Position numbers and translations under genes: made by a program. From contig WFRY01000466.1 of NCBI GenBank assembly GCA_015486315.1, forward strand, positions 7,864-71,863: a stretch of DNA of 64,000 nucleotides, given 5' to 3'. Source of the stretch: Desulfobulbaceae bacterium (GTDB lineage: Bacteria; Desulfobacterota; Desulfobulbia; Desulfobulbales; Desulfobulbaceae). Under the pieces are notes generated by a model. That model was not told where the DNA came from. It did not search any database and worked only from the letters and a program-made list of their open reading frames with translations. Positions 27,738 to 59,340 of the stretch are shown here, in pieces (position 1 is the first letter of the stretch; the number at the start of each line of letters is the position of its first letter).

Positions 27738-27799
27738 GTAAGCGCTCCATGAACCCCGAGGTGTTATCATGTCAAGAGTGTGGTTAATGAAGCGCTTAC
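27738..27799 (+). repeat. REP/MITE-like unit of the GTAAGCGCT family with terminal inverted repeats
   Basis: GTAAGCGCTCCATGAAC...TTAATGAAGCGCTTAC. The termini GTAAGCGCT and AGCGCTTAC are reverse complements. Confidence 0.7.
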
Positions 27800-28003: not shown

Positions 28004-28010
28004 TCTATTG

Positions 28011-28026
28011 TTAATGAAGCGCTTAC
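28011..28026 (+). repeat. Right-end half-copy of the GTAAGCGCT family
   Basis: TTAATGAAGCGCTTAC followed by TATATTTC, as at 27784-27808. Confidence 0.6.
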
Positions 28027-36673: not shown

Positions 36674-38956
36674 TTGACTTCAACAACTGACAACCAGACC
36701 TCCCGATCCTCCAGACAGATCAGCGATGGTATTAATCAGCTGATCGCCGGAGATAACGGGACCCTGAAACAGATAGAAATTGCCCTTGCTGTCCCGAAGA
36801 CTATCGAGCATCTTCTTCGGGACAAAAACAGCGAAGGGGTGGATATACTCCTTGGCCGGATAGTCGCCATCCTCCAGGGGGTTGATGATGTTCTCCGGCA
36901 AAATGCTGCCATTGCCCTGGCCGGTACACTGGAGGTTCTGGTGCAGGAAGAAGAATGGCAGCGCATGGAAAGGTTACTGCCGGCAATTCAGCAATCGCTT
37001 CATATTGCAGCCGACAACGACGTTGCCATTGAACGATGTATTTCTGCTGTCACAAAACTTGCCGTGCACCTCATCCGCATTGGCCAATACAGTGCTCCCC
37101 GGATTATTCTGGTCATGATCAACGGACCGGCAACGCGGGCCGCAGCAACGGAACAGTTCAACAAACTTGCTGCACAGGCTATAGATGAGCTGGCATTACA
37201 GCCGGTCATGGACAAGCTTCTGAGGGAATACCTGCACGGGAACGAAAAACAGGAAGAAGCCGGCCGCCTTCTAGTTGCCTTTGACCGACATGCTACAGAT
37301 TTCCTTATGGATCGTCTCAGCCTGAGCGACAGCAAAAATGAACGTATCAGGCTGCTCAAGCTGATTGAGGATATTGGTGAACCGGCGATAGGTGCGCTGC
37401 GGATGATGCTGCAGCAAACAACACCATGGTATGTCACCAGAAACATCATCAGACTGCTGGGCGAAACCGGCAGTCTTGACTGCTTTAAGGATATCATTCC
37501 CTATCTTGAGCATGACGATGTTCGGGTAAAACAGGAGGTGTTGACGGCTGCTGCAAAGATCGGCGGAAGCACCAGAAAACAGTTTTTACTGAAGGCGTTG
37601 AAAACAGTGCCTCCAGAGCTTACGGGACATGTGATTTCCCTGCTCGGAGACATCCCGGATGACAGTCTGGTGGTGCCGCTTGCCGAGCTTCTGGACAGGG
37701 GATGCATCCACCAGAGTAAATGCGGAACCCAACTGCAGGTTACGACCTGTGACGCCCTGGGAAAGATAGGCTCCATCAAGGCAGTGCCTATTCTGAAAAA
37801 AATTATTGCCAACAATACCCTGCCCGGTACGGATACGGAAGATGAGGGGACAAACCCCATCCTGCAGGCTGCCCGGGATGCGCTTCAACTCATCCGGGAT
37901 GACAGCAGGCAGAAGATCCATCAGACCAGGGTCAAAAAGGTCATGGGCTTGCAGATGGCTGCCGACCATATTTCTGCCAAAGAGGCGGCAATCATCCGGA
38001 TTGCCATGACGGGAGACAAGAAAAAAGCCCTCCGTAAACTCTTTGACCTTATTCGTGAGTGCGCGGAAAACAAAGACTTCCAAAACGCGGAGCGGCTCAG
38101 GGAACGATTATATGAAATTGCCCCCATGGCACTCAATGCAATTATCCAGTCGGCAGAGGTCATAGAACAGGCCAGAACCGGCGTTGTCGGTCCCGGCTTT
38201 CTCCAGATCTGGTCGGATGTGCGCAATGAGCTCACCCGCAAGGAATTCAGTGCGATTTATCATGAACTCAAGAACCGTTCCCTGCAGGCTGAAGAGGTTC
38301 TTGTCAAACAGGGCACGAATAACAATGAACTTTTTTTTATCAACCATGGCAGTATAAAGGTCTCCTATAAACAGGATGACCGCGAAATTTTTATTAAGAG
38401 TCTTAATGCAGGTGAGATAGTAGGAGAGAATTTTTTTCACGCTTCAGTCTGGACCGTCAACCTGAGAGCCCTGACCCCCAGCCGGGTTTCCATCCTTGAA
38501 CGTTCCAGTTTCAGCCGCTGGCAGGAGGAGTTCCCCGGGCTGGCCGGCAAGCTGGAATCCTTCTGTAAACGTTCGGATAATGTGCACGATCTGCTGAATC
38601 AGAAGGGATTAAGCCGCAGGCTCTTTGAACGCTATCAGCTGTCCCGCAAAGTGGATATCCAGCTGACCGACAGGCGGGGAAAGACCATCGGCCGCGGATT
38701 CAAGGGAGAGTTATCCGATATATCAAAAGGAGGTCTTGCCCTGCTTATCAGTATGGCGGAACAGGAGAATGGTCGACTGCTGCTGGAAAGGGACATCCAG
38801 GTATTAATCCCGGTGGGCGGCAAAACAGGCTACGTGCACGTCCGTGGCCGGGTACAGGGAGTGCACCCCTCTAAACCGCAACATCACGATTTCCTGATCC
38901 ATGTCGTATTTCATGATAAACTGGAACCGGAATCCCTGCAGACTATTCTCGGCTGA
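36674..38956 (+). CDS. HEAT-repeat / cyclic-nucleotide-binding / PilZ multidomain protein
   Basis: N-terminal ~450 aa of helical HEAT-like repeats, a cNMP-binding-like segment (VLVKQGTNNNELFFINHGSIKV...GEIVGE), then PilZ motifs RRLFER...DISKGG. The start is uncertain: TTG at 36674 with no clear RBS, and the first in-frame ATG is about 98 codons in. Confidence 0.7.
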   Translation: MTSTTDNQTSRSSRQISDGINQLIAGDNGTLKQIEIALAVPKTIEHLLRDKNSEGVDILLGRIVAILQGVDDVLRQNAAIALAGTLEVLVQEEEWQRMERLLPAIQQSLHIAADNDVAIERCISAVTKLAVHLIRIGQYSAPRIILVMINGPATRAAATEQFNKLAAQAIDELALQPVMDKLLREYLHGNEKQEEAGRLLVAFDRHATDFLMDRLSLSDSKNERIRLLKLIEDIGEPAIGALRMMLQQTTPWYVTRNIIRLLGETGSLDCFKDIIPYLEHDDVRVKQEVLTAAAKIGGSTRKQFLLKALKTVPPELTGHVISLLGDIPDDSLVVPLAELLDRGCIHQSKCGTQLQVTTCDALGKIGSIKAVPILKKIIANNTLPGTDTEDEGTNPILQAARDALQLIRDDSRQKIHQTRVKKVMGLQMAADHISAKEAAIIRIAMTGDKKKALRKLFDLIRECAENKDFQNAERLRERLYEIAPMALNAIIQSAEVIEQARTGVVGPGFLQIWSDVRNELTRKEFSAIYHELKNRSLQAEEVLVKQGTNNNELFFINHGSIKVSYKQDDREIFIKSLNAGEIVGENFFHASVWTVNLRALTPSRVSILERSSFSRWQEEFPGLAGKLESFCKRSDNVHDLLNQKGLSRRLFERYQLSRKVDIQLTDRRGKTIGRGFKGELSDISKGGLALLISMAEQENGRLLLERDIQVLIPVGGKTGYVHVRGRVQGVHPSKPQHHDFLIHVVFHDKLEPESLQTILG

Positions 38957-38972
38957 TCAGCACCGGCAATTG

Positions 38973-41384
38973 CTACACCTGAGCTACACCTCTCATATCC
39001 AGTACCGGCTCCCAGACAAGCAGCAGTTCCAGGTTATAAATATCACTATGTCTCGGCGTTATATTAACCGTTTCCAGATTATAATTCTCCGGATCAAAGC
39101 GATTCGCCAGCGCTGCGAGCTTTTCCTGCAGCTCCCGGGCCAGGATATCAAGATCCTCCTGAACCAGGGCTTCGGCATCCTCGGCCCGCTGCACATCCCC
39201 CTGTTCCTTGATAACCCGTCCTGCCCCCCGCACACTGCGGACACCACGATTTGCATTGGAAACCGACAACTTTTTTCGGCTGAACAGGGCGCTGAGAATC
39301 GTCGCACCAATTGACAGAGCAGTATCAATACCTTTAGCCCTTACATCTCCTTTTTCCTTATCAACCCGTGCCGATGCCTTTTCAAGTCTTACTTCCAGCT
39401 GACGCTGTTTTTTCTCATATCGCTCTTTAATTTTATCTGCTTCGATTTCCTTTTTTTCCCGAAGCAGGTCGGCTATGCGTTTTTTAAACTGTACCGTTGT
39501 CTCCCCCGGTCTGGAAACCAGTTTAAGCGAGGCCACCTTCATCAGGGGCAGCCGCATGGTATGGTACAAAAAATCATCAAACTCTTTTTCCATGCTCCGC
39601 AGACTCTTCACCCCGATAAAGGCCTGTGAAATCGGGGCATAGCGACTTCCGAGCGGTGCCTTTTCTCTACAGTCATCCCTTTCCGGAACATACTCCAGGG
39701 CCTGCTGCCAGTCGGGTTCACCAACATCAGCAGTGGCAGGCAGGCGCAGGCAGATCTGCCTGGTCTCATCTACTCCGTGGGTTTGTTTCACAAAACGTAC
39801 CGTTGCCGCAGCCACCAGACATGGTACATAATCAACCTCTTCCAGCGGGATCTGTGGGGGCAGATAACATTGCTTAATACCTGCTGAAAGCATGGGCGGA
39901 GCAGTGCTGAACCTTGCTGTCGGCAGTGCAGGCATTGCGGGGGCAGTCTCAGGTTGCCTGCCGGTATCCTCCTGCGGGTCCGTTGCAAACATCTTTGCAA
40001 TTTCAGGTAACGAAACAGGCCCCTTCAAAAAGGACATGGCCCAGCGGGTCTCAAACAGAACAGGTTCATCCTGATGGGCGGAGTACATGAGAAAGGTTCG
40101 CCCCCGCATATCAGAGAGCATTTCCCGGATCTGTTGTTCACTGAAATCATCCGAACTGCCGGCGATTCCGGTCATGACCCGGTCCTGATCCTGCCTGGTC
40201 TGCAGACGACCGACAAACCAGGTCCCGATATTGGACAATCCTTTATAATCAAGATCCACGGGATTCTGGGTGGAGAGTACCACACCGACCCCGTAAGCCC
40301 TGGCCTGCTTCAGCAGAAGCAGCATGGGTTTCTTGGATGGCGGGTTTGCATTAGGCGGGAAATAACCAAAAATTTCATCCATATAGAGCAGACAGCGCAG
40401 CCCACTGCTCCCCTCCTGCCTGCGCATCCAGGAAATAAAACGCCCGAGAAGCATGGAAACAAAAAACATCCGTTCGTCATCACTTAGATGGGCAATGGAA
40501 AAAATTGAAACCTGCGGCTTACCGGAAGCGGCATAGAGAAAATTCTCCATGTGCAGAGGATCGCCTTTGGTCCAGCCGCTGAAGGCCGGACTAGCAAGGA
40601 TATTGTTGAGCTGCATGGCAAGGTCCATCCGTTTCTGCTGCGGAAAAAACATGTCCGTCGAAAGACTGCCTACCTTCTGAAAAGGAGGGTTCACCACCGC
40701 ACCGATCAACATTTCCAGGGATAAATCCTGCTGCTTGCGCCAGTAATAAAGGACAATGGAGGAGAGCAGAATATGCTCCCGGCTCCGCAGAGGATCCGCC
40801 TTTACCCCCACCAATGCAAGGAGAGAACCGACAGTCGAGTTGACCAGACCGGCAGCAGTCTCATTGTCCTGCAGCACCTCGGGATCCGGGGCTTCCATGC
40901 TGTCCAGTACGGAGACAGGCCGTCCTGAGCTGCTGCCCGGGGTATAGACAACAATATCAACCGAGCTACGCATCCGGGCAATACGTTCTTTATCCTGTCC
41001 CCAGGATCCAAGCCCGTCCTGCCAGGTCTCAGCTGTTTCCGCAGCCAGTTCTTCCCGGCTGATATTTTTCTGCGCTGCCAGGCCTTCGTCCACCCAGGGT
41101 TCAAAATCCTTGCCGGCAAGATCCGGAAAGGAGAGCAGCAGGTTGGTCATATCACCCTTTGGATCAATGACAATGGCAGGCAGTTTGTCAATTGCCGCCT
41201 CTTCAATCATATCGATACCCAGGCCGGTCTTGCCGCTGCCGGTCATACCGATGATCGCGGCATGGGTGGTAAGATTCTTGTTTTTGTACAACAGGGGCAG
41301 GCGGGTTGTCTCCCCGGTTACCGGGTCCAGTTTCCGTCCCAGATAAAACAGGTCCATTTTTTCAAAATCACTTGCACCGGCCAT
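38973..41384 (-). CDS. HerA/FtsK-type (DUF87/DUF853-like) P-loop NTPase, 803 aa
   Basis: Walker A GMTGSGKTG, IDPKGD, Walker B LLYMDEIFGY and VVLSTQNPVDLD.., followed by a Lys/Glu-rich coiled-coil C-terminal half. Confidence 0.75.
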   Translation of the reverse strand: MAGASDFEKMDLFYLGRKLDPVTGETTRLPLLYKNKNLTTHAAIIGMTGSGKTGLGIDMIEEAAIDKLPAIVIDPKGDMTNLLLSFPDLAGKDFEPWVDEGLAAQKNISREELAAETAETWQDGLGSWGQDKERIARMRSSVDIVVYTPGSSSGRPVSVLDSMEAPDPEVLQDNETAAGLVNSTVGSLLALVGVKADPLRSREHILLSSIVLYYWRKQQDLSLEMLIGAVVNPPFQKVGSLSTDMFFPQQKRMDLAMQLNNILASPAFSGWTKGDPLHMENFLYAASGKPQVSIFSIAHLSDDERMFFVSMLLGRFISWMRRQEGSSGLRCLLYMDEIFGYFPPNANPPSKKPMLLLLKQARAYGVGVVLSTQNPVDLDYKGLSNIGTWFVGRLQTRQDQDRVMTGIAGSSDDFSEQQIREMLSDMRGRTFLMYSAHQDEPVLFETRWAMSFLKGPVSLPEIAKMFATDPQEDTGRQPETAPAMPALPTARFSTAPPMLSAGIKQCYLPPQIPLEEVDYVPCLVAAATVRFVKQTHGVDETRQICLRLPATADVGEPDWQQALEYVPERDDCREKAPLGSRYAPISQAFIGVKSLRSMEKEFDDFLYHTMRLPLMKVASLKLVSRPGETTVQFKKRIADLLREKKEIEADKIKERYEKKQRQLEVRLEKASARVDKEKGDVRAKGIDTALSIGATILSALFSRKKLSVSNANRGVRSVRGAGRVIKEQGDVQRAEDAEALVQEDLDILARELQEKLAALANRFDPENYNLETVNITPRHSDIYNLELLLVWEPVLDMRGVAQV

Positions 41385-41456
41385 GTACTTCCTCCGAAAG
41401 AAATTGCTATTTCATTGAACTGGGTGCAGCTTTCTGCTTGAATAGATACAGATAAA

Positions 41457-41479
41457 CGTAAGCGCTCCATGAACGCTTA
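41457..41479 (+). repeat. Compact hairpin copy of the GTAAGCGCT family
   Basis: GTAAGCG-CTCCATGAA-CGCTTAC (7-bp stem) in the divergent intergenic region. Confidence 0.7.
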
Positions 41480-41533
41480 CAGGTAAACCAGCAAGGCCGG
41501 ACCATTTTTCGGGCTCCGGCCACAACCAACAAT

Positions 41534-41573
41534 GAAAATAGCCTGAATCAGCAGTACCCTTGTGGCTATTTTC
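41534..41573 (+). promoter_or_regulatory. Conserved leader hairpin (10-bp stem, 20-nt loop) upstream of the primase-helicase-like gene
   Basis: GAAAATAGCC-N20-GGCTATTTTC preceded by CAACCAACAAT. It has the same sense orientation and a similar distance to the start codon as the hisB copy. Confidence 0.4.
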
Positions 41574-41609
41574 GGATATAGCTCCAAACCTATTCAGCAG
41601 GAAACAACC

Positions 41610-43388
41610 ATGGACCACACGGATCCGGTCACTGTTTTTTACAAAGAACAATTACCAGAAGCAGAAGTGAAAAACAACATCCTTACGGCACAATGTCCAT
41701 TCTGTAAACAAAACAACAGAGAGGAACAGGGGGTACTTGTTGTTTTCCTCAACCAGGAAAGCTATTTTCATGGTTACTATCGCTGCCTGAACCACTGCTC
41801 ACCAGGCGGATTCCCTCTTCACTTTGCCAGGCAGCTCCATATTGATCTGCGTCTTGTGCCGGGCTTTGACCCGGACCGCGATTATGCAGTCTCACGGGTT
41901 GATTATCCGGTAAAAAATCTCAACCATGAACTTCTGGACTTCATGTCTAAAATGACTGATGACCTGAACAGCCGCTTTGCGGCAGCCGGTATCTCCGGGG
42001 AGATTCTCCGGCAAATGAAGGTCGGATATAACGGCCGCTATCTGGTCTATCCCTATATCCAGGAAGACGGTAACTGCTATTCTACCCGTTGTGTTCATCC
42101 AGACAGCCCCGATGATACCTTCTGGTACGGAGATGAATCCTTTTTCAGTGAGCAGTTCAGGATTTTTAATGTCGAAGAATTACTGCGTTGTGAAAACGGC
42201 AGTCTGATCATTGTCGAGGGTGAAGACAACCTGCTTACCCTTAAACAACTTGGTCTGCCTGCCATAGCCATGCCCACTGCCGCTGAATTTGTTCATCTCA
42301 AGAGGGAACGGCTGGCATGGATCAACACCGTGTTTATCAGTGTCAACCACACACCTGAATCAGAAACAGCTGCGAGAAAATTCGCCTCCCGCCTCGGTTA
42401 CAAGGTCAGGCTCATCTCCTGGCCCGACTCTGCCCCCAGGCATTATAACCTGACCCAACTGGCCCGTGAAAAAGGGGGAGAGTTCCAAAAAGAAGTTTTT
42501 TCTCTTATTCGGGCGGCCAGATCATTTTCTCCTTTCAGCTCCCCTGAACGGGAGTTCCTCCATTTTCAGGAACAGCTGGCCCTTGAGGCCGGGAAGAGCT
42601 ACCAGACCATGGCATCCGGATTTACAAAACTGGATACGGCCCTGGGCGGGATTCACGGGATCAACATTATGGGCGGCCTGCCCAAAGCGGGAAAATCCTG
42701 CTTTTTTATTCAGACCGCAACAGAAATGGCCCGTCGCAAAGTGCCGGTCATTTATTATGATTTTGAAAATGGCCGTCAGAAAATCTACCAGCGCACCCTC
42801 TGCCGCCTGAGCAGGCTGACAACCAGCCGGATTAAGAGCGGCCGGCTGACGGATGAGGAAAACAACAGACTGCAGACTGCCCGCACGGAACTCAATAACT
42901 TACTGCCCTGGTTTCGGGTGGTAACCGACCGAAAGCTGACGCCGAATCTGATGCGCAGCCATATTGACTTTCTCCGACATGAAACCAACTCCGATTATAC
43001 GCTGGTGGTTATAGACAGCCTGCATAAACTGCCGTTCAAAGATTTCTCCGAACGAAGAACCGGTATTGACGCCTGGCTGCGGCAACTCGAGGCCATACGC
43101 GATGAACTCCGCGTCTCCTTCCTGGTCATCTCGGAACTGACCCGTGGCGAAGACGGGCAGTATGACAGCCAACCGCAGCTCGGCGCCTTTAAGGGATCCG
43201 GCGACATTGAGTACTCAGCCGACAATGCCATGGTCCTGCTGCCGCAGTGGGATCCCTTCGGCAGTGATCCGGTTGACAGGCGCCATAACGACCTGTGGCT
43301 GGTGGCCAGCCGCGAACATGGTCCGGGAATGATCGGGTCCTACCGGCTTGATTACCCCTACTGGGGGTTTACCGAAGAAGAGGGATAA
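41610..43388 (+). CDS. Zn-ribbon / TOPRIM-like / RepA-DnaB-like (RecA-fold) ATPase, primase-helicase architecture
   Basis: CPFCKQ...YYRCLNHC zinc-ribbon-like segment, LIIVEGEDNLLTLKQLG (TOPRIM Glu), Walker A GGLPKAGKS, Walker B LVVIDSLH, and KGSGDIEYSADNAMVL typical of DnaB_C/AAA_25. The start is at the ATG at 41610. Confidence 0.7.
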   Translation: MDHTDPVTVFYKEQLPEAEVKNNILTAQCPFCKQNNREEQGVLVVFLNQESYFHGYYRCLNHCSPGGFPLHFARQLHIDLRLVPGFDPDRDYAVSRVDYPVKNLNHELLDFMSKMTDDLNSRFAAAGISGEILRQMKVGYNGRYLVYPYIQEDGNCYSTRCVHPDSPDDTFWYGDESFFSEQFRIFNVEELLRCENGSLIIVEGEDNLLTLKQLGLPAIAMPTAAEFVHLKRERLAWINTVFISVNHTPESETAARKFASRLGYKVRLISWPDSAPRHYNLTQLAREKGGEFQKEVFSLIRAARSFSPFSSPEREFLHFQEQLALEAGKSYQTMASGFTKLDTALGGIHGINIMGGLPKAGKSCFFIQTATEMARRKVPVIYYDFENGRQKIYQRTLCRLSRLTTSRIKSGRLTDEENNRLQTARTELNNLLPWFRVVTDRKLTPNLMRSHIDFLRHETNSDYTLVVIDSLHKLPFKDFSERRTGIDAWLRQLEAIRDELRVSFLVISELTRGEDGQYDSQPQLGAFKGSGDIEYSADNAMVLLPQWDPFGSDPVDRRHNDLWLVASREHGPGMIGSYRLDYPYWGFTEEEG

Positions 43389-43390
43389 AC

Positions 43391-43407
43391 GTAAGCGCTC
43401 CATGAAC
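43391..43407 (+). repeat. GTAAGCGCTCCATGAAC repeat copy between convergent genes
   Basis: Exact 17-mer 3 nt after the stop codon, preceded by AAAC as at 41453. Confidence 0.7.
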
Positions 43408-43947: not shown

Positions 43948-44096
43948 GTAAGCGCTCCATGAACACCGAGCTGTTATCAAGTTAAGGGTACAATCAAAAA
44001 TAACTTCACATTCTGAGCAGAAATCGGGCAGGGTAAGCGAGCTCGCGAGACTCCGAAAGGCCATTTATGGACAGGCACTAATTAATGAAGCGTTTA
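43948..44096 (+). repeat. 149-bp MITE-like member of the GTAAGCGCT family
   Basis: Left end GTAAGCGCTCCATGAACACCGAGCTGTTATCAAG (compare 27738-27771) and right end TTAATGAAGCGTTTAC. Confidence 0.65.
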
Positions 44097-59281: not shown

Positions 59282-59340
59282 CTCTTGACATGATAACACC
59301 TCGGAATGTAAGCCTTCCAGGGTGTTCATGGAGCGCTTAC
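59282..59340 (-). repeat. GTAAGCGCT-family repeat copy (inverted) overlapping the 3' end of the YkgJ-like gene
   Basis: CTCTTGACATGATAACACCTCGG...GTTCATGGAGCGCTTAC is the reverse complement of 27738-27778 with an 18-nt insertion. Confidence 0.7.

Follow-up and report, generated by a model that had tools for sequence, protein, structure and literature searches.

Why should a HerA-type ATPase and a primase-helicase be encoded back to back on a bacterial chromosome? The question is posed by a 64,000-nucleotide stretch of contig WFRY01000466.1 from a Desulfobulbaceae bacterium (assembly GCA_015486315.1), called the window below, in which an 803-aa open reading frame (ORF) for a HerA-like protein (38973-41384, minus strand) and the gene for a 592-aa protein (41610-43388, plus strand) diverge from a 225-bp spacer (41385-41609). 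The first encodes a standalone P-loop ATPase of the HerA/FtsK clade whose C-terminal part holds a beta domain and a coiled-coil hairpin; the second, for which PH is our shorthand, joins a zinc ribbon, a TOPRIM-fold region and a DnaB-family helicase domain in the manner of T7 gp4 and Twinkle. Such a combination of HerA-type ATPase and primase-helicase has the look of a new defence system, and an earlier note on this DNA had proposed an uncharacterised defence or DNA-surveillance pair, with a domesticated replication module as its alternative. Our analysis indicates that the pairing reflects lineage-specific gene order. We consider it probable that an exapted, seemingly primase-dead gp4/Twinkle-like PH lies beside an unrelated standalone HerA-family ATPase, the two being independent genes that are neighbours through local gene order in part of the Desulfobulbales.

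Both ORFs, the divergent spacer and the motifs that the earlier note had quoted are present in the window. The PH frame, which ends at 43388, has two possible starts, GTG at 41562 and ATG at 41610; homologues, including P0001 (100% identical, 592 aa), start at the ATG, so that PH is 592 aa long and the spacer 225 bp. The only Pfam matches in PH were DnaB_C (7.6e-29, residues 334-543) and AAA_25; neither Toprim nor zf-CHC2 was found, whereas zf-CHC2 and Toprim_2 were both detected in sister proteins. A PDB profile search with full-length PH returned only DnaB C-domains (best 4e-17) and no sequence-level gp4 match, and a profile of the N-terminal part gave nothing meaningful in the PDB even at E <= 10. 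PHROG 239, described as "DNA primase/helicase", spans residues 121-582. The AlphaFold2 (AF2) model of PH averages 65 in the predicted local distance difference test (pLDDT); its first 300 residues score mostly 70-89, and the helicase core is poorly modelled. In full-length Foldseek comparisons the model matched T7 gp4 best (5ikn, 3.8e-13 over 500 columns; also 6n9x), then human Twinkle (7t8c, 6e-13 over 619 columns), followed by DnaB and the zinc-binding and RNA-polymerase domains (ZBD-RPD) of Aquifex DnaG. The top matches in the viral structure library BFVD were phage DnaG/Twinkle-type primase-helicases. Since the Pfam and PDB sequence searches were null for the N-terminus, its primase ancestry shows only through the fold, the PHROG profile and the alignment with sister proteins. 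PH thus combines the features expected of a gp4/Twinkle-type protein, namely a zinc ribbon, a TOPRIM fold (recognised by fold and profile only) and a DnaB-family helicase domain.

Residue conservation was counted over 121 members of the PH family and up to 9 sister proteins, with T7 gp4 numbering as the reference. The Cys4 zinc ribbon (41694-41798, plus strand) comprises C29, C32, C59 and C63, all four present in every one of the 121 members, and the first three align with C17, C20 and C36 of T7 gp4. This CPFC...C...C ribbon is like that of gp4, with a longer insert between the cysteine pairs in the PH family; the nearest mobile-element sisters carry a DnaG-type C-H-C-C arrangement. The DnaB-family helicase domain, of superfamily 4 (SF4), was placed at 42609-43349 by Pfam DnaB_C and the PDB DnaB matches. 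It contains, on the plus strand, the Walker A motif GGLPKAGKS (42672-42698), the Walker B motif VVIDSLHK (43005-43028), the motif FKGSGDIEYSADN (43188-43226) and R568 (within 43305-43316), which aligns with the arginine finger R522 of T7. The motifs CPFC...CLNHC, VEGED, GKS, VIDSLH and KGSGDIEYSADN were likewise verified at their coordinates. The linker is essentially invariant, and so are the catalytic residues of the helicase: the Walker A lysine K362 (T7 K318) occurs in 121/121 members, the Walker B aspartate D469 (T7 D424) in 120/121, R568 in 120/121 and the catalytic glutamate E386 in 121/121, and the sisters have Lys, Asp and Arg at the first three positions in 9/9 cases each.

To the N-terminal side lies a TOPRIM-fold region (42192-42479, plus strand), a beta-alpha repeat in the AF2 model (residues 198-268), which alignment with T7 gp4, the sisters and more distant gp4-like proteins reveals to be degenerate. 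An EGE motif is retained (42216-42224, plus strand); the T7 residue E157 corresponds to E203, which is Glu in 116/121 members and in all 9 sisters, and E205 is Glu in all 121. The equivalent of the DxD motif is N246-H247-T248 (42345-42353, plus strand), and the equivalent of T7 D237 is N280, within YNLTQ (42444-42458, plus strand), so that T7 FDMDEAG aligns with VNHTPES of the window protein and T7 KDANE with YNLTQ. Aspartate is found at the position of T7 D207 (N246) in 19 of the 121 members, at that of D209 (T248) in none and at that of D237 (N280) in one, against 9/9, 9/9 and 7/7 aligned sisters, respectively; the replacing residues vary among N, S, T, C, H and K. We take D207, D209 and D237 to be catalytic metal ligands of the T7 primase. 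As read from these alignments, the PH centre is shown to have lost three of the four acidic residues that the mobile-element sisters and T7 gp4 keep: from the set expected of an active primase (the EGxxD Glu, the DxD and a distal Asp), the Glu alone remains. The primase-helicase architecture described in the earlier note therefore holds for the zinc ribbon, the TOPRIM Glu and the RecA-fold ATPase, and has to be amended for the missing DxD and last acidic motif. Given that three of its four acidic ligands are gone, we infer that PH no longer makes primers.

Degeneration of the centre has not been accompanied by decay of the domain. Between PH and its two closest orthologues, the ratio of nonsynonymous to synonymous substitution rates (dN/dS) was ~0.064-0.067 overall, ~0.067 for the N-terminal domain and ~0.05 for the helicase domain, figures that are rough with dS above 1 and near saturation. 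The N-terminal domain is thus constrained like the helicase domain, which implies that it has been kept for a function, presumably the binding of DNA or a partner. A PH that is still bifunctional, priming through non-canonical ligands such as E203, E205 and other conserved polar residues, would account for this selection, for the conservation of both glutamates and for the invariant zinc ribbon, which gp4 needs for template recognition. We nevertheless regard such activity as unlikely: the three Asp positions are non-acidic in nearly all members and are filled variably, unlike a re-tuned metal site, and the mobile-element sisters keep all three aspartates. Metazoan Twinkle, which has comparable losses in primase motifs IV and V and has lost the zinc finger as well, is without primase activity and works as a helicase (PMC3610141).

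PH itself is a chromosomal core gene under strong purifying selection on both halves. Over the same loci, mean identity to the window protein was 64% for PH, compared with 75% for ArgC, 56% for TruA, 54% for Maf and 39% for the PilZ protein, all of which are encoded nearby; this puts PH on a level with ArgC and TruA. A HMMER search of 1.84 billion cluster representatives recovered the full-length PH family as four clusters at 50% identity (550-842 bits), whose named members are all Desulfobulbales or "Deltaproteobacteria" metagenome-assembled genomes (MAGs); below them the scores drop sharply to sister clusters at 188-297 bits (P0257, P0394, P0253, P0258 and P0268), which have Pfam zf-CHC2, Toprim_2 and DnaB_C. 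No family member was found on the 2.9 million viral contigs of IMG/VR, and tblastn of phage and plasmid collections gave no full-length relatives, only distant partial ones at 20-28% identity. In the literature we found nothing specific on the PH family or on replication genes of cable bacteria or Desulfobulbales.

The sister proteins keep different company. At one sister locus (L089, 500-4143) a TOPRIM-intact primase-helicase adjoins an AbiEi/AbiEii pair. At a second (L090, 1-16100) the primase-like and helicase parts fall on separate ORFs, in the company of two ThsB-TIR genes, a caspase-like peptidase, a methylase, a resolvase, an HNH gene, an excisionase-type helix-turn-helix gene and a phage integrase. 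TOPRIM-intact sisters thus apparently reside in integrative elements, and defence cargo accompanies them and not the chromosomal PH. From these two sister contexts, the best explanation for the PH lineage is an origin in mobile elements.

Are the HerA-like gene and PH inherited together? We scanned one genome per species and found at least 340 species with PH relatives; the best 80, all Desulfobulbales (Desulfobulbaceae, Candidatus Electrothrix and Electronema, and Desulfocapsaceae), were analysed by tblastn of the window proteins against the PH loci, 72 of which had enough upstream DNA for neighbours to be called. These tallies, like those of the 80-locus HerA-centred scan below, are samples and not censuses. 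A HerA-like gene was adjacent and divergent to PH at 23 of the 72 loci and lay 3.5 kb away at one more. At 33 loci the PilZ gene was the immediate upstream neighbour of PH, no HerA-like gene intervening (within 400 bp in 31 cases, ~1.1 kb in two), and at 15, including all cable-bacteria loci, neither gene was present. Every HerA-like gene near PH belongs to the same block, argC-truA-maf-(sugar transferase)-PilZ-[HerA-like]-PH, and for this reason its adjacency is not separable from plain synteny.

Several observations attach to the PH loci. The PilZ gene has the same orientation as PH in the 33 loci where it is directly upstream, at 31 of which the two are 11-400 bp apart, and its product evolves fast, with 39% mean identity and lengths from 760 to 1426 aa (L088, 12481-16761; L002, 4312-7083). 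Candidatus Electrothrix sp. YB6 has PH alone, immediately preceded by a fragment of a DDE transposase of ISAZ013 type (L001, 9747-10046), in a rearranged region near gyrA; this fits a loss of the ancestral argC-PilZ-PH synteny in the cable bacteria.

Seen from the other gene, linkage is rarer still. Desulfopila IMCC35008 and Desulforhopalus 52FAK, two Desulfocapsaceae with complete genomes, carry HerA-like orthologues of 54-55% identity that are divergent to nqrA-F, and no PH lies within 10 kb of them; in an "Acidobacteria" MAG, an orthologue 52% identical is likewise without PH in its vicinity. The nqrA-F genes form the operon of the Na+-translocating NADH:quinone reductase, and the HerA-like genes beside it (L086, 8310-12403; L087, 8230-12406) have CMD, TPM-phosphatase and LemA genes downstream, which makes this a second conserved location. 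A HerA-centred scan of diverse metagenomes yielded 80 full-length relatives, which are 39-56% identical to the window protein and come from contigs whose GC content spans 25-72%; 53 of these loci extend at least 2 kb upstream of the gene and 50 at least 2 kb downstream. PH was a neighbour at a single one of these 80 loci, and that locus carries the whole Desulfobulbales synteny. Clustering of the flanking ORFs gave no conserved partner, as no neighbour cluster exceeded 14 loci; the recurring neighbours, at up to 14 loci each, were PAS/GAF histidine kinases, UvrA and a DMT transporter. Among the 16 loci with both genes, divergence of PH and of the HerA-like protein from the window copies was correlated (r = 0.91), from which we conclude that both are vertically inherited. 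For the patchy occupancy of the HerA-like slot, relocation or loss of the gene is a better explanation than a cassette passed on horizontally.

The same evidence bears on the proposal that the HerA-like gene and PH form a dedicated two-gene anti-phage or DNA-surveillance module sharing a divergent promoter region. Its attraction lies in the divergent adjacency seen in the window and 23 species, in the HerA fold common to the motors of SIR2-HerA and DUF4297-HerA, and in weak, partial PADLOC matches to HerA and mad8 models. We find it very unlikely. The two genes are not adjacent in 49 of the 72 species or at 79 of the 80 HerA-like loci, no linkage of the orthologues is seen in Desulfocapsaceae and cable bacteria, PH is just as well conserved at loci with no adjoining HerA-like gene, and the spacer length is not conserved; vertical inheritance of both genes is likewise unlike typical defence cargo. 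The module also lacks an effector: no SIR2 or DUF4297 gene lies beside the HerA-like gene in the window or the related loci, no NurA or other nuclease partner adjoins the window copy or recurs in the 80 loci, and there is no defence island. Neither protein reached a curated defence-family threshold in the DefenseFinder/PADLOC-type check that the earlier note had suggested. The NCBIfam anti-phage HerA model NF042943 scored 27.7 bits on the HerA-like protein against a cut-off of 800, the PADLOC HerA models (and mad8, weakly) covered partial stretches only, at no more than 47 bits for HerA, and PADLOC, applied to 10 neighbouring genes as far as 51.9 kb, detected only the generic ABC-ATPase similarity of the Mla ATPase. 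Co-conservation across unrelated genomes, by which the earlier note would have judged its pair, is confined to the synteny block of one order, and the defence reading is not supported; its alternative, domestication of a replication module, fits the PH gene on its own.

What, then, is the HerA-like protein? Its assignment to the HerA/FtsK type with a coiled-coil tail, already made in the earlier note, is borne out by Pfam DUF87 (3.6e-8, above the cut-off; HerA_C weak), by the fold and by a predicted hairpin. All of the top 50 Foldseek matches were HerA structures at 12-17% identity (2e-9 to 1e-6, ~500 aligned columns), led by Deinococcus HerA (7wrw, 2e-9) and including those of HerA-NurA, SIR2-HerA and DUF4297-HerA. 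In the AF2 model (mean pLDDT 71), residues ~40-445 form the ATPase core; a disordered linker separates it from a beta domain at ~505-617, which is followed by an antiparallel helical hairpin at 630-762 (helices 630-701 and 709-762). On the minus strand these correspond to 40050-41267 for the core and 39099-39497 for the hairpin. The core motifs, invariant in 20 family members, were verified at 41223-41249 (Walker A, GMTGSGKTG), 40368-40391 (Walker B, LLYMDEIF) and 40248-40274 (STQNPVDLD), all on the minus strand. Walker A begins at residue 46 and is preceded only by short beta strands; these ~45 residues leave essentially no HAS barrel of the kind found in classical HerA. The protein hence has the ATPase core of a HerA and neither the N-terminal HAS barrel nor an adjacent NurA gene, and NCBIfam helicase_HerA scored 20 bits against a cut-off of 970. 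It shares the HerA/FtsK-clade ATPase fold with its Walker A and B motifs with HerA-NurA, SIR2-HerA and DUF4297-HerA; unlike them, it has no full HAS barrel, has a unique 350-aa C-terminal region of beta domain and coiled-coil hairpin, and has no NurA, SIR2 or DUF4297 gene adjacent. By fold it is a member of the HerA clade that lies outside these three systems, in a very widespread, uncharacterised family of ~800-aa standalone HerA-clade ATPases with no conserved partner gene, for which no default annotation as a defence HerA is warranted. From the invariant ATPase motifs and the HerA fold it would by default be a hexameric nucleic-acid translocase.

The tip of the hairpin (residues 684-705, ~686-703; 39270-39335, minus strand) is Gly/Ala-rich, apolar and conserved in the family alignment, with the consensus DTALSFGVAxxGALFGRK and low AF2 pLDDT. 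As a transmembrane helix it was rejected, having only ~15 consecutive apolar or small residues, which is short for a classical span. The conserved apolar tip suggests an anchoring or partner-contact device, and the loop could be membrane-dipping or partner-docking.

That C-terminal region could also make the HerA-like protein a single-gene defence or DNA-translocation system, with its own domain as effector or anchor. Variable presence in the PilZ-PH slot, the HerA fold, the hydrophobic-tipped coiled coil and the occurrence of ATPase-core relatives on 4 viral contigs would all agree with this; but its divergence tracks that of PH (r = 0.91), its dN/dS is ~0.11-0.17, its context is housekeeping in every genome examined, no defence model scored above cut-off and the viral relatives, at 470-540 aa, are missing the tail. 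We therefore judge this idea quite unlikely. The viral-contig relatives, from IMG/VR (L172, 7986-9404; L174, 7941-9572), are ~470-540 aa long, 41-45% identical to the ATPase core and without the C-terminal beta domain and coiled-coil tail.

Returning to PH, we propose that it derives from a mobile-element primase-helicase of the T7-gp4/Twinkle type that became fixed downstream of argC-truA-maf-PilZ and was then vertically inherited. By fold and motifs it would assemble as a DnaB/gp4-like ring and translocate 5'->3' on single-stranded DNA, presumably hydrolysing nucleoside triphosphates at subunit interfaces through K362, E386, D469 and R568. With its acidic ligands lost it would make no primers, and the conserved collar of zinc ribbon and TOPRIM fold may act as a non-catalytic module for binding DNA or a partner, as in metazoan Twinkle. 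Least certainly, PH may be an accessory helicase for replication, restart or repair, acting in addition to canonical DnaB and DnaG. The HerA-like gene occupies the slot between PilZ and PH in some Desulfobulbaceae and lies elsewhere, or is missing from the slot, in other lineages.

Comparison with known proteins places PH precisely. T7 gp4, its best full-length structural match, has the same domain order of Cys4 zinc ribbon, TOPRIM-fold RNA-polymerase domain, linker and SF4 helicase; it is only ~19% identical, retains D207, D209 and D237, whose equivalents PH has lost, and is a phage gene, whereas PH belongs to the bacterial chromosome, as a core gene passed on vertically. Metazoan Twinkle, the second-best structural match (7t8c), is likewise a gp4 homologue recruited by a cellular lineage in which the helicase was kept and the primase-like N-terminus degraded (PMC3610141). 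It differs in having lost the zinc-finger cysteines (PMC3610141), which are invariant in PH, and in being the sole replicative helicase of mitochondrial DNA, whereas PH presumably works beside DnaB; the recruitment of PH, being bacterial and not eukaryotic, was separate from Twinkle's. DnaB is closest in sequence through its C-terminal RecA-type helicase domain, and has an N-terminal helical domain where PH has the zinc-ribbon/TOPRIM-fold module. The gp4-like sister primase-helicases are 27-30% identical and alignable from about residue 100 to the C-terminus, sharing PVIYYDFENG and IDSLQKLP. Unlike PH, these sisters, which are rare, keep the TOPRIM motifs DNDxAG and D(I/L)ND and the CHC2 zinc finger, and an integrative-element or toxin-antitoxin setting surrounds the two that were examined. 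PH therefore appears best described as a new, chromosomally fixed and primase-degenerate variant of the gp4/Twinkle kind.

A precedent for such fixation exists in bacteria: phage dnaC and dnaI genes were domesticated in place of dciA, became fixed across orders and phyla and were then inherited vertically under purifying selection (PMC5109545). They are AAA+ loaders that keep their original activity, whereas PH appears to have dropped one of two. The precedent, in which phage-derived replication factors were domesticated repeatedly (PMC5109545), could be taken further, to a PH that replaced DnaB as the main replicative helicase of the Desulfobulbales or became an essential second fork helicase. 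Order-wide distribution, housekeeping-level conservation and retention in rearranged cable-bacteria genomes would suit this, but the DnaB equivalog TIGR00665 scored only 92.7 bits on PH against a cut-off of 385, and the NCBI label is merely DnaB-like ("DnaB-like helicase C-terminal domain-containing protein"). Pfam gave no match to a DnaB N-terminal domain in PH. To our knowledge DnaB is regarded as universal in bacteria, which also counts against a replacement, and we consider this scenario highly improbable. A broader proposition is that PH is a bacterial counterpart of metazoan Twinkle, captured from a mobile element at the root of the order, fixed at a housekeeping locus, deprived of its primase metal site but not of its zinc ribbon, and now an important or essential second replicative-type helicase for chromosomal forks, restart or repair. 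Prokaryotes would then have followed the course of Twinkle a second time, independently. This is offered tentatively; it may well be wrong.

Several points weigh against the reading of PH as an exapted, primase-dead helicase next to an unrelated ATPase. The loss of priming is deduced from sequence, and with E203, E205 and the zinc ribbon kept and the domain constrained, altered catalysis is possible. In roughly one-third of species the divergent layout could allow co-regulation, and a lineage-specific link could exist there; the presence of PH and an unlinked HerA-like gene within a single genome is presumed. Coexistence with canonical DnaB and DnaG is likewise presumed; in 2.3 Mb of Desulfobulbales locus DNA, 11 DnaB-like representatives matched PH genes only, a result that speaks for that DNA alone. 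The dN/dS figures carry the saturation already mentioned, both AF2 models are moderate (mean pLDDT 65 for PH and 71 for the HerA-like protein), and the cellular roles of the two proteins are inferred from sequence.

If the reading of PH as an exapted gp4/Twinkle-like protein is confirmed, PH would be a clean case of bacteria putting a phage replication enzyme to a new use, in parallel to Twinkle in the mitochondria of animals. It would also raise the question of why the Desulfobulbales, including the centimetre-long and highly polyploid cable bacteria, keep a second motor of the DnaB family.

The surroundings of the pair confirm a housekeeping, non-mobile setting. By Pfam, one flank encodes ArgC, TruA, Maf, a sugar transferase and a cyclic nucleotide-binding (cNMP)/HEAT/PilZ protein (36674-38956, plus strand), whose gene is found upstream of PH more constantly than any other throughout the order, and the other a 4HBT thioesterase and a Mem_trans transporter, then MlaC/A/D. 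No integrase or recombinase was found among the Pfam-scanned neighbours (32.7-47.1 kb), the closest of the three tRNAs in the window is 7.6 kb from the pair, and GC content across the locus is unremarkable, in agreement with the absence of a mobile-element context reported before.

One feature of the DNA itself might suggest otherwise. Perfect 24-nt direct repeats flank PH at 41451-41474 and 43384-43407, and gp4-like genes are normally mobile-element genes, so that PH could be read as the remnant of a cryptic integrated element with these repeats as attachment sites. The repeats were rejected in that role: their 17-nt core, GTAAGCGCTCCATGAAC, occurs seven times at unrelated intergenic sites of the window and in 0 of the 171 related loci. 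PH, furthermore, occupies the same syntenic site order-wide at a dN/dS of ~0.06, with no nearby integrase and no member of its family on viral contigs, and a cryptic element is extremely improbable.

The core instead looks like a genome-specific dispersed repeat, resembling repetitive extragenic palindromic (REP) or miniature inverted-repeat transposable (MITE) elements, or a shared operator. The spacer holds one copy of the palindromic repeat (41451-41481), with a hairpin at 41457-41481. A promoter scan of the 225 bp revealed no sigma-70-like site, a result that says nothing on co-regulation, and among relatives the spacer ranges from 54 bp (L088) to ~390 bp. The seven window copies of the core, against 0 expected by chance, are at 27738-27754 (+), 27783-27799 (-), 28010-28026 (-), 41458-41474 (+), 43391-43407 (+), 43948-43964 (+) and 59324-59340 (-). 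Six lie between long ORFs and the copy at 59324 among overlapping short ORFs, and some form inverted pairs, such as those at 27738 and 27783.

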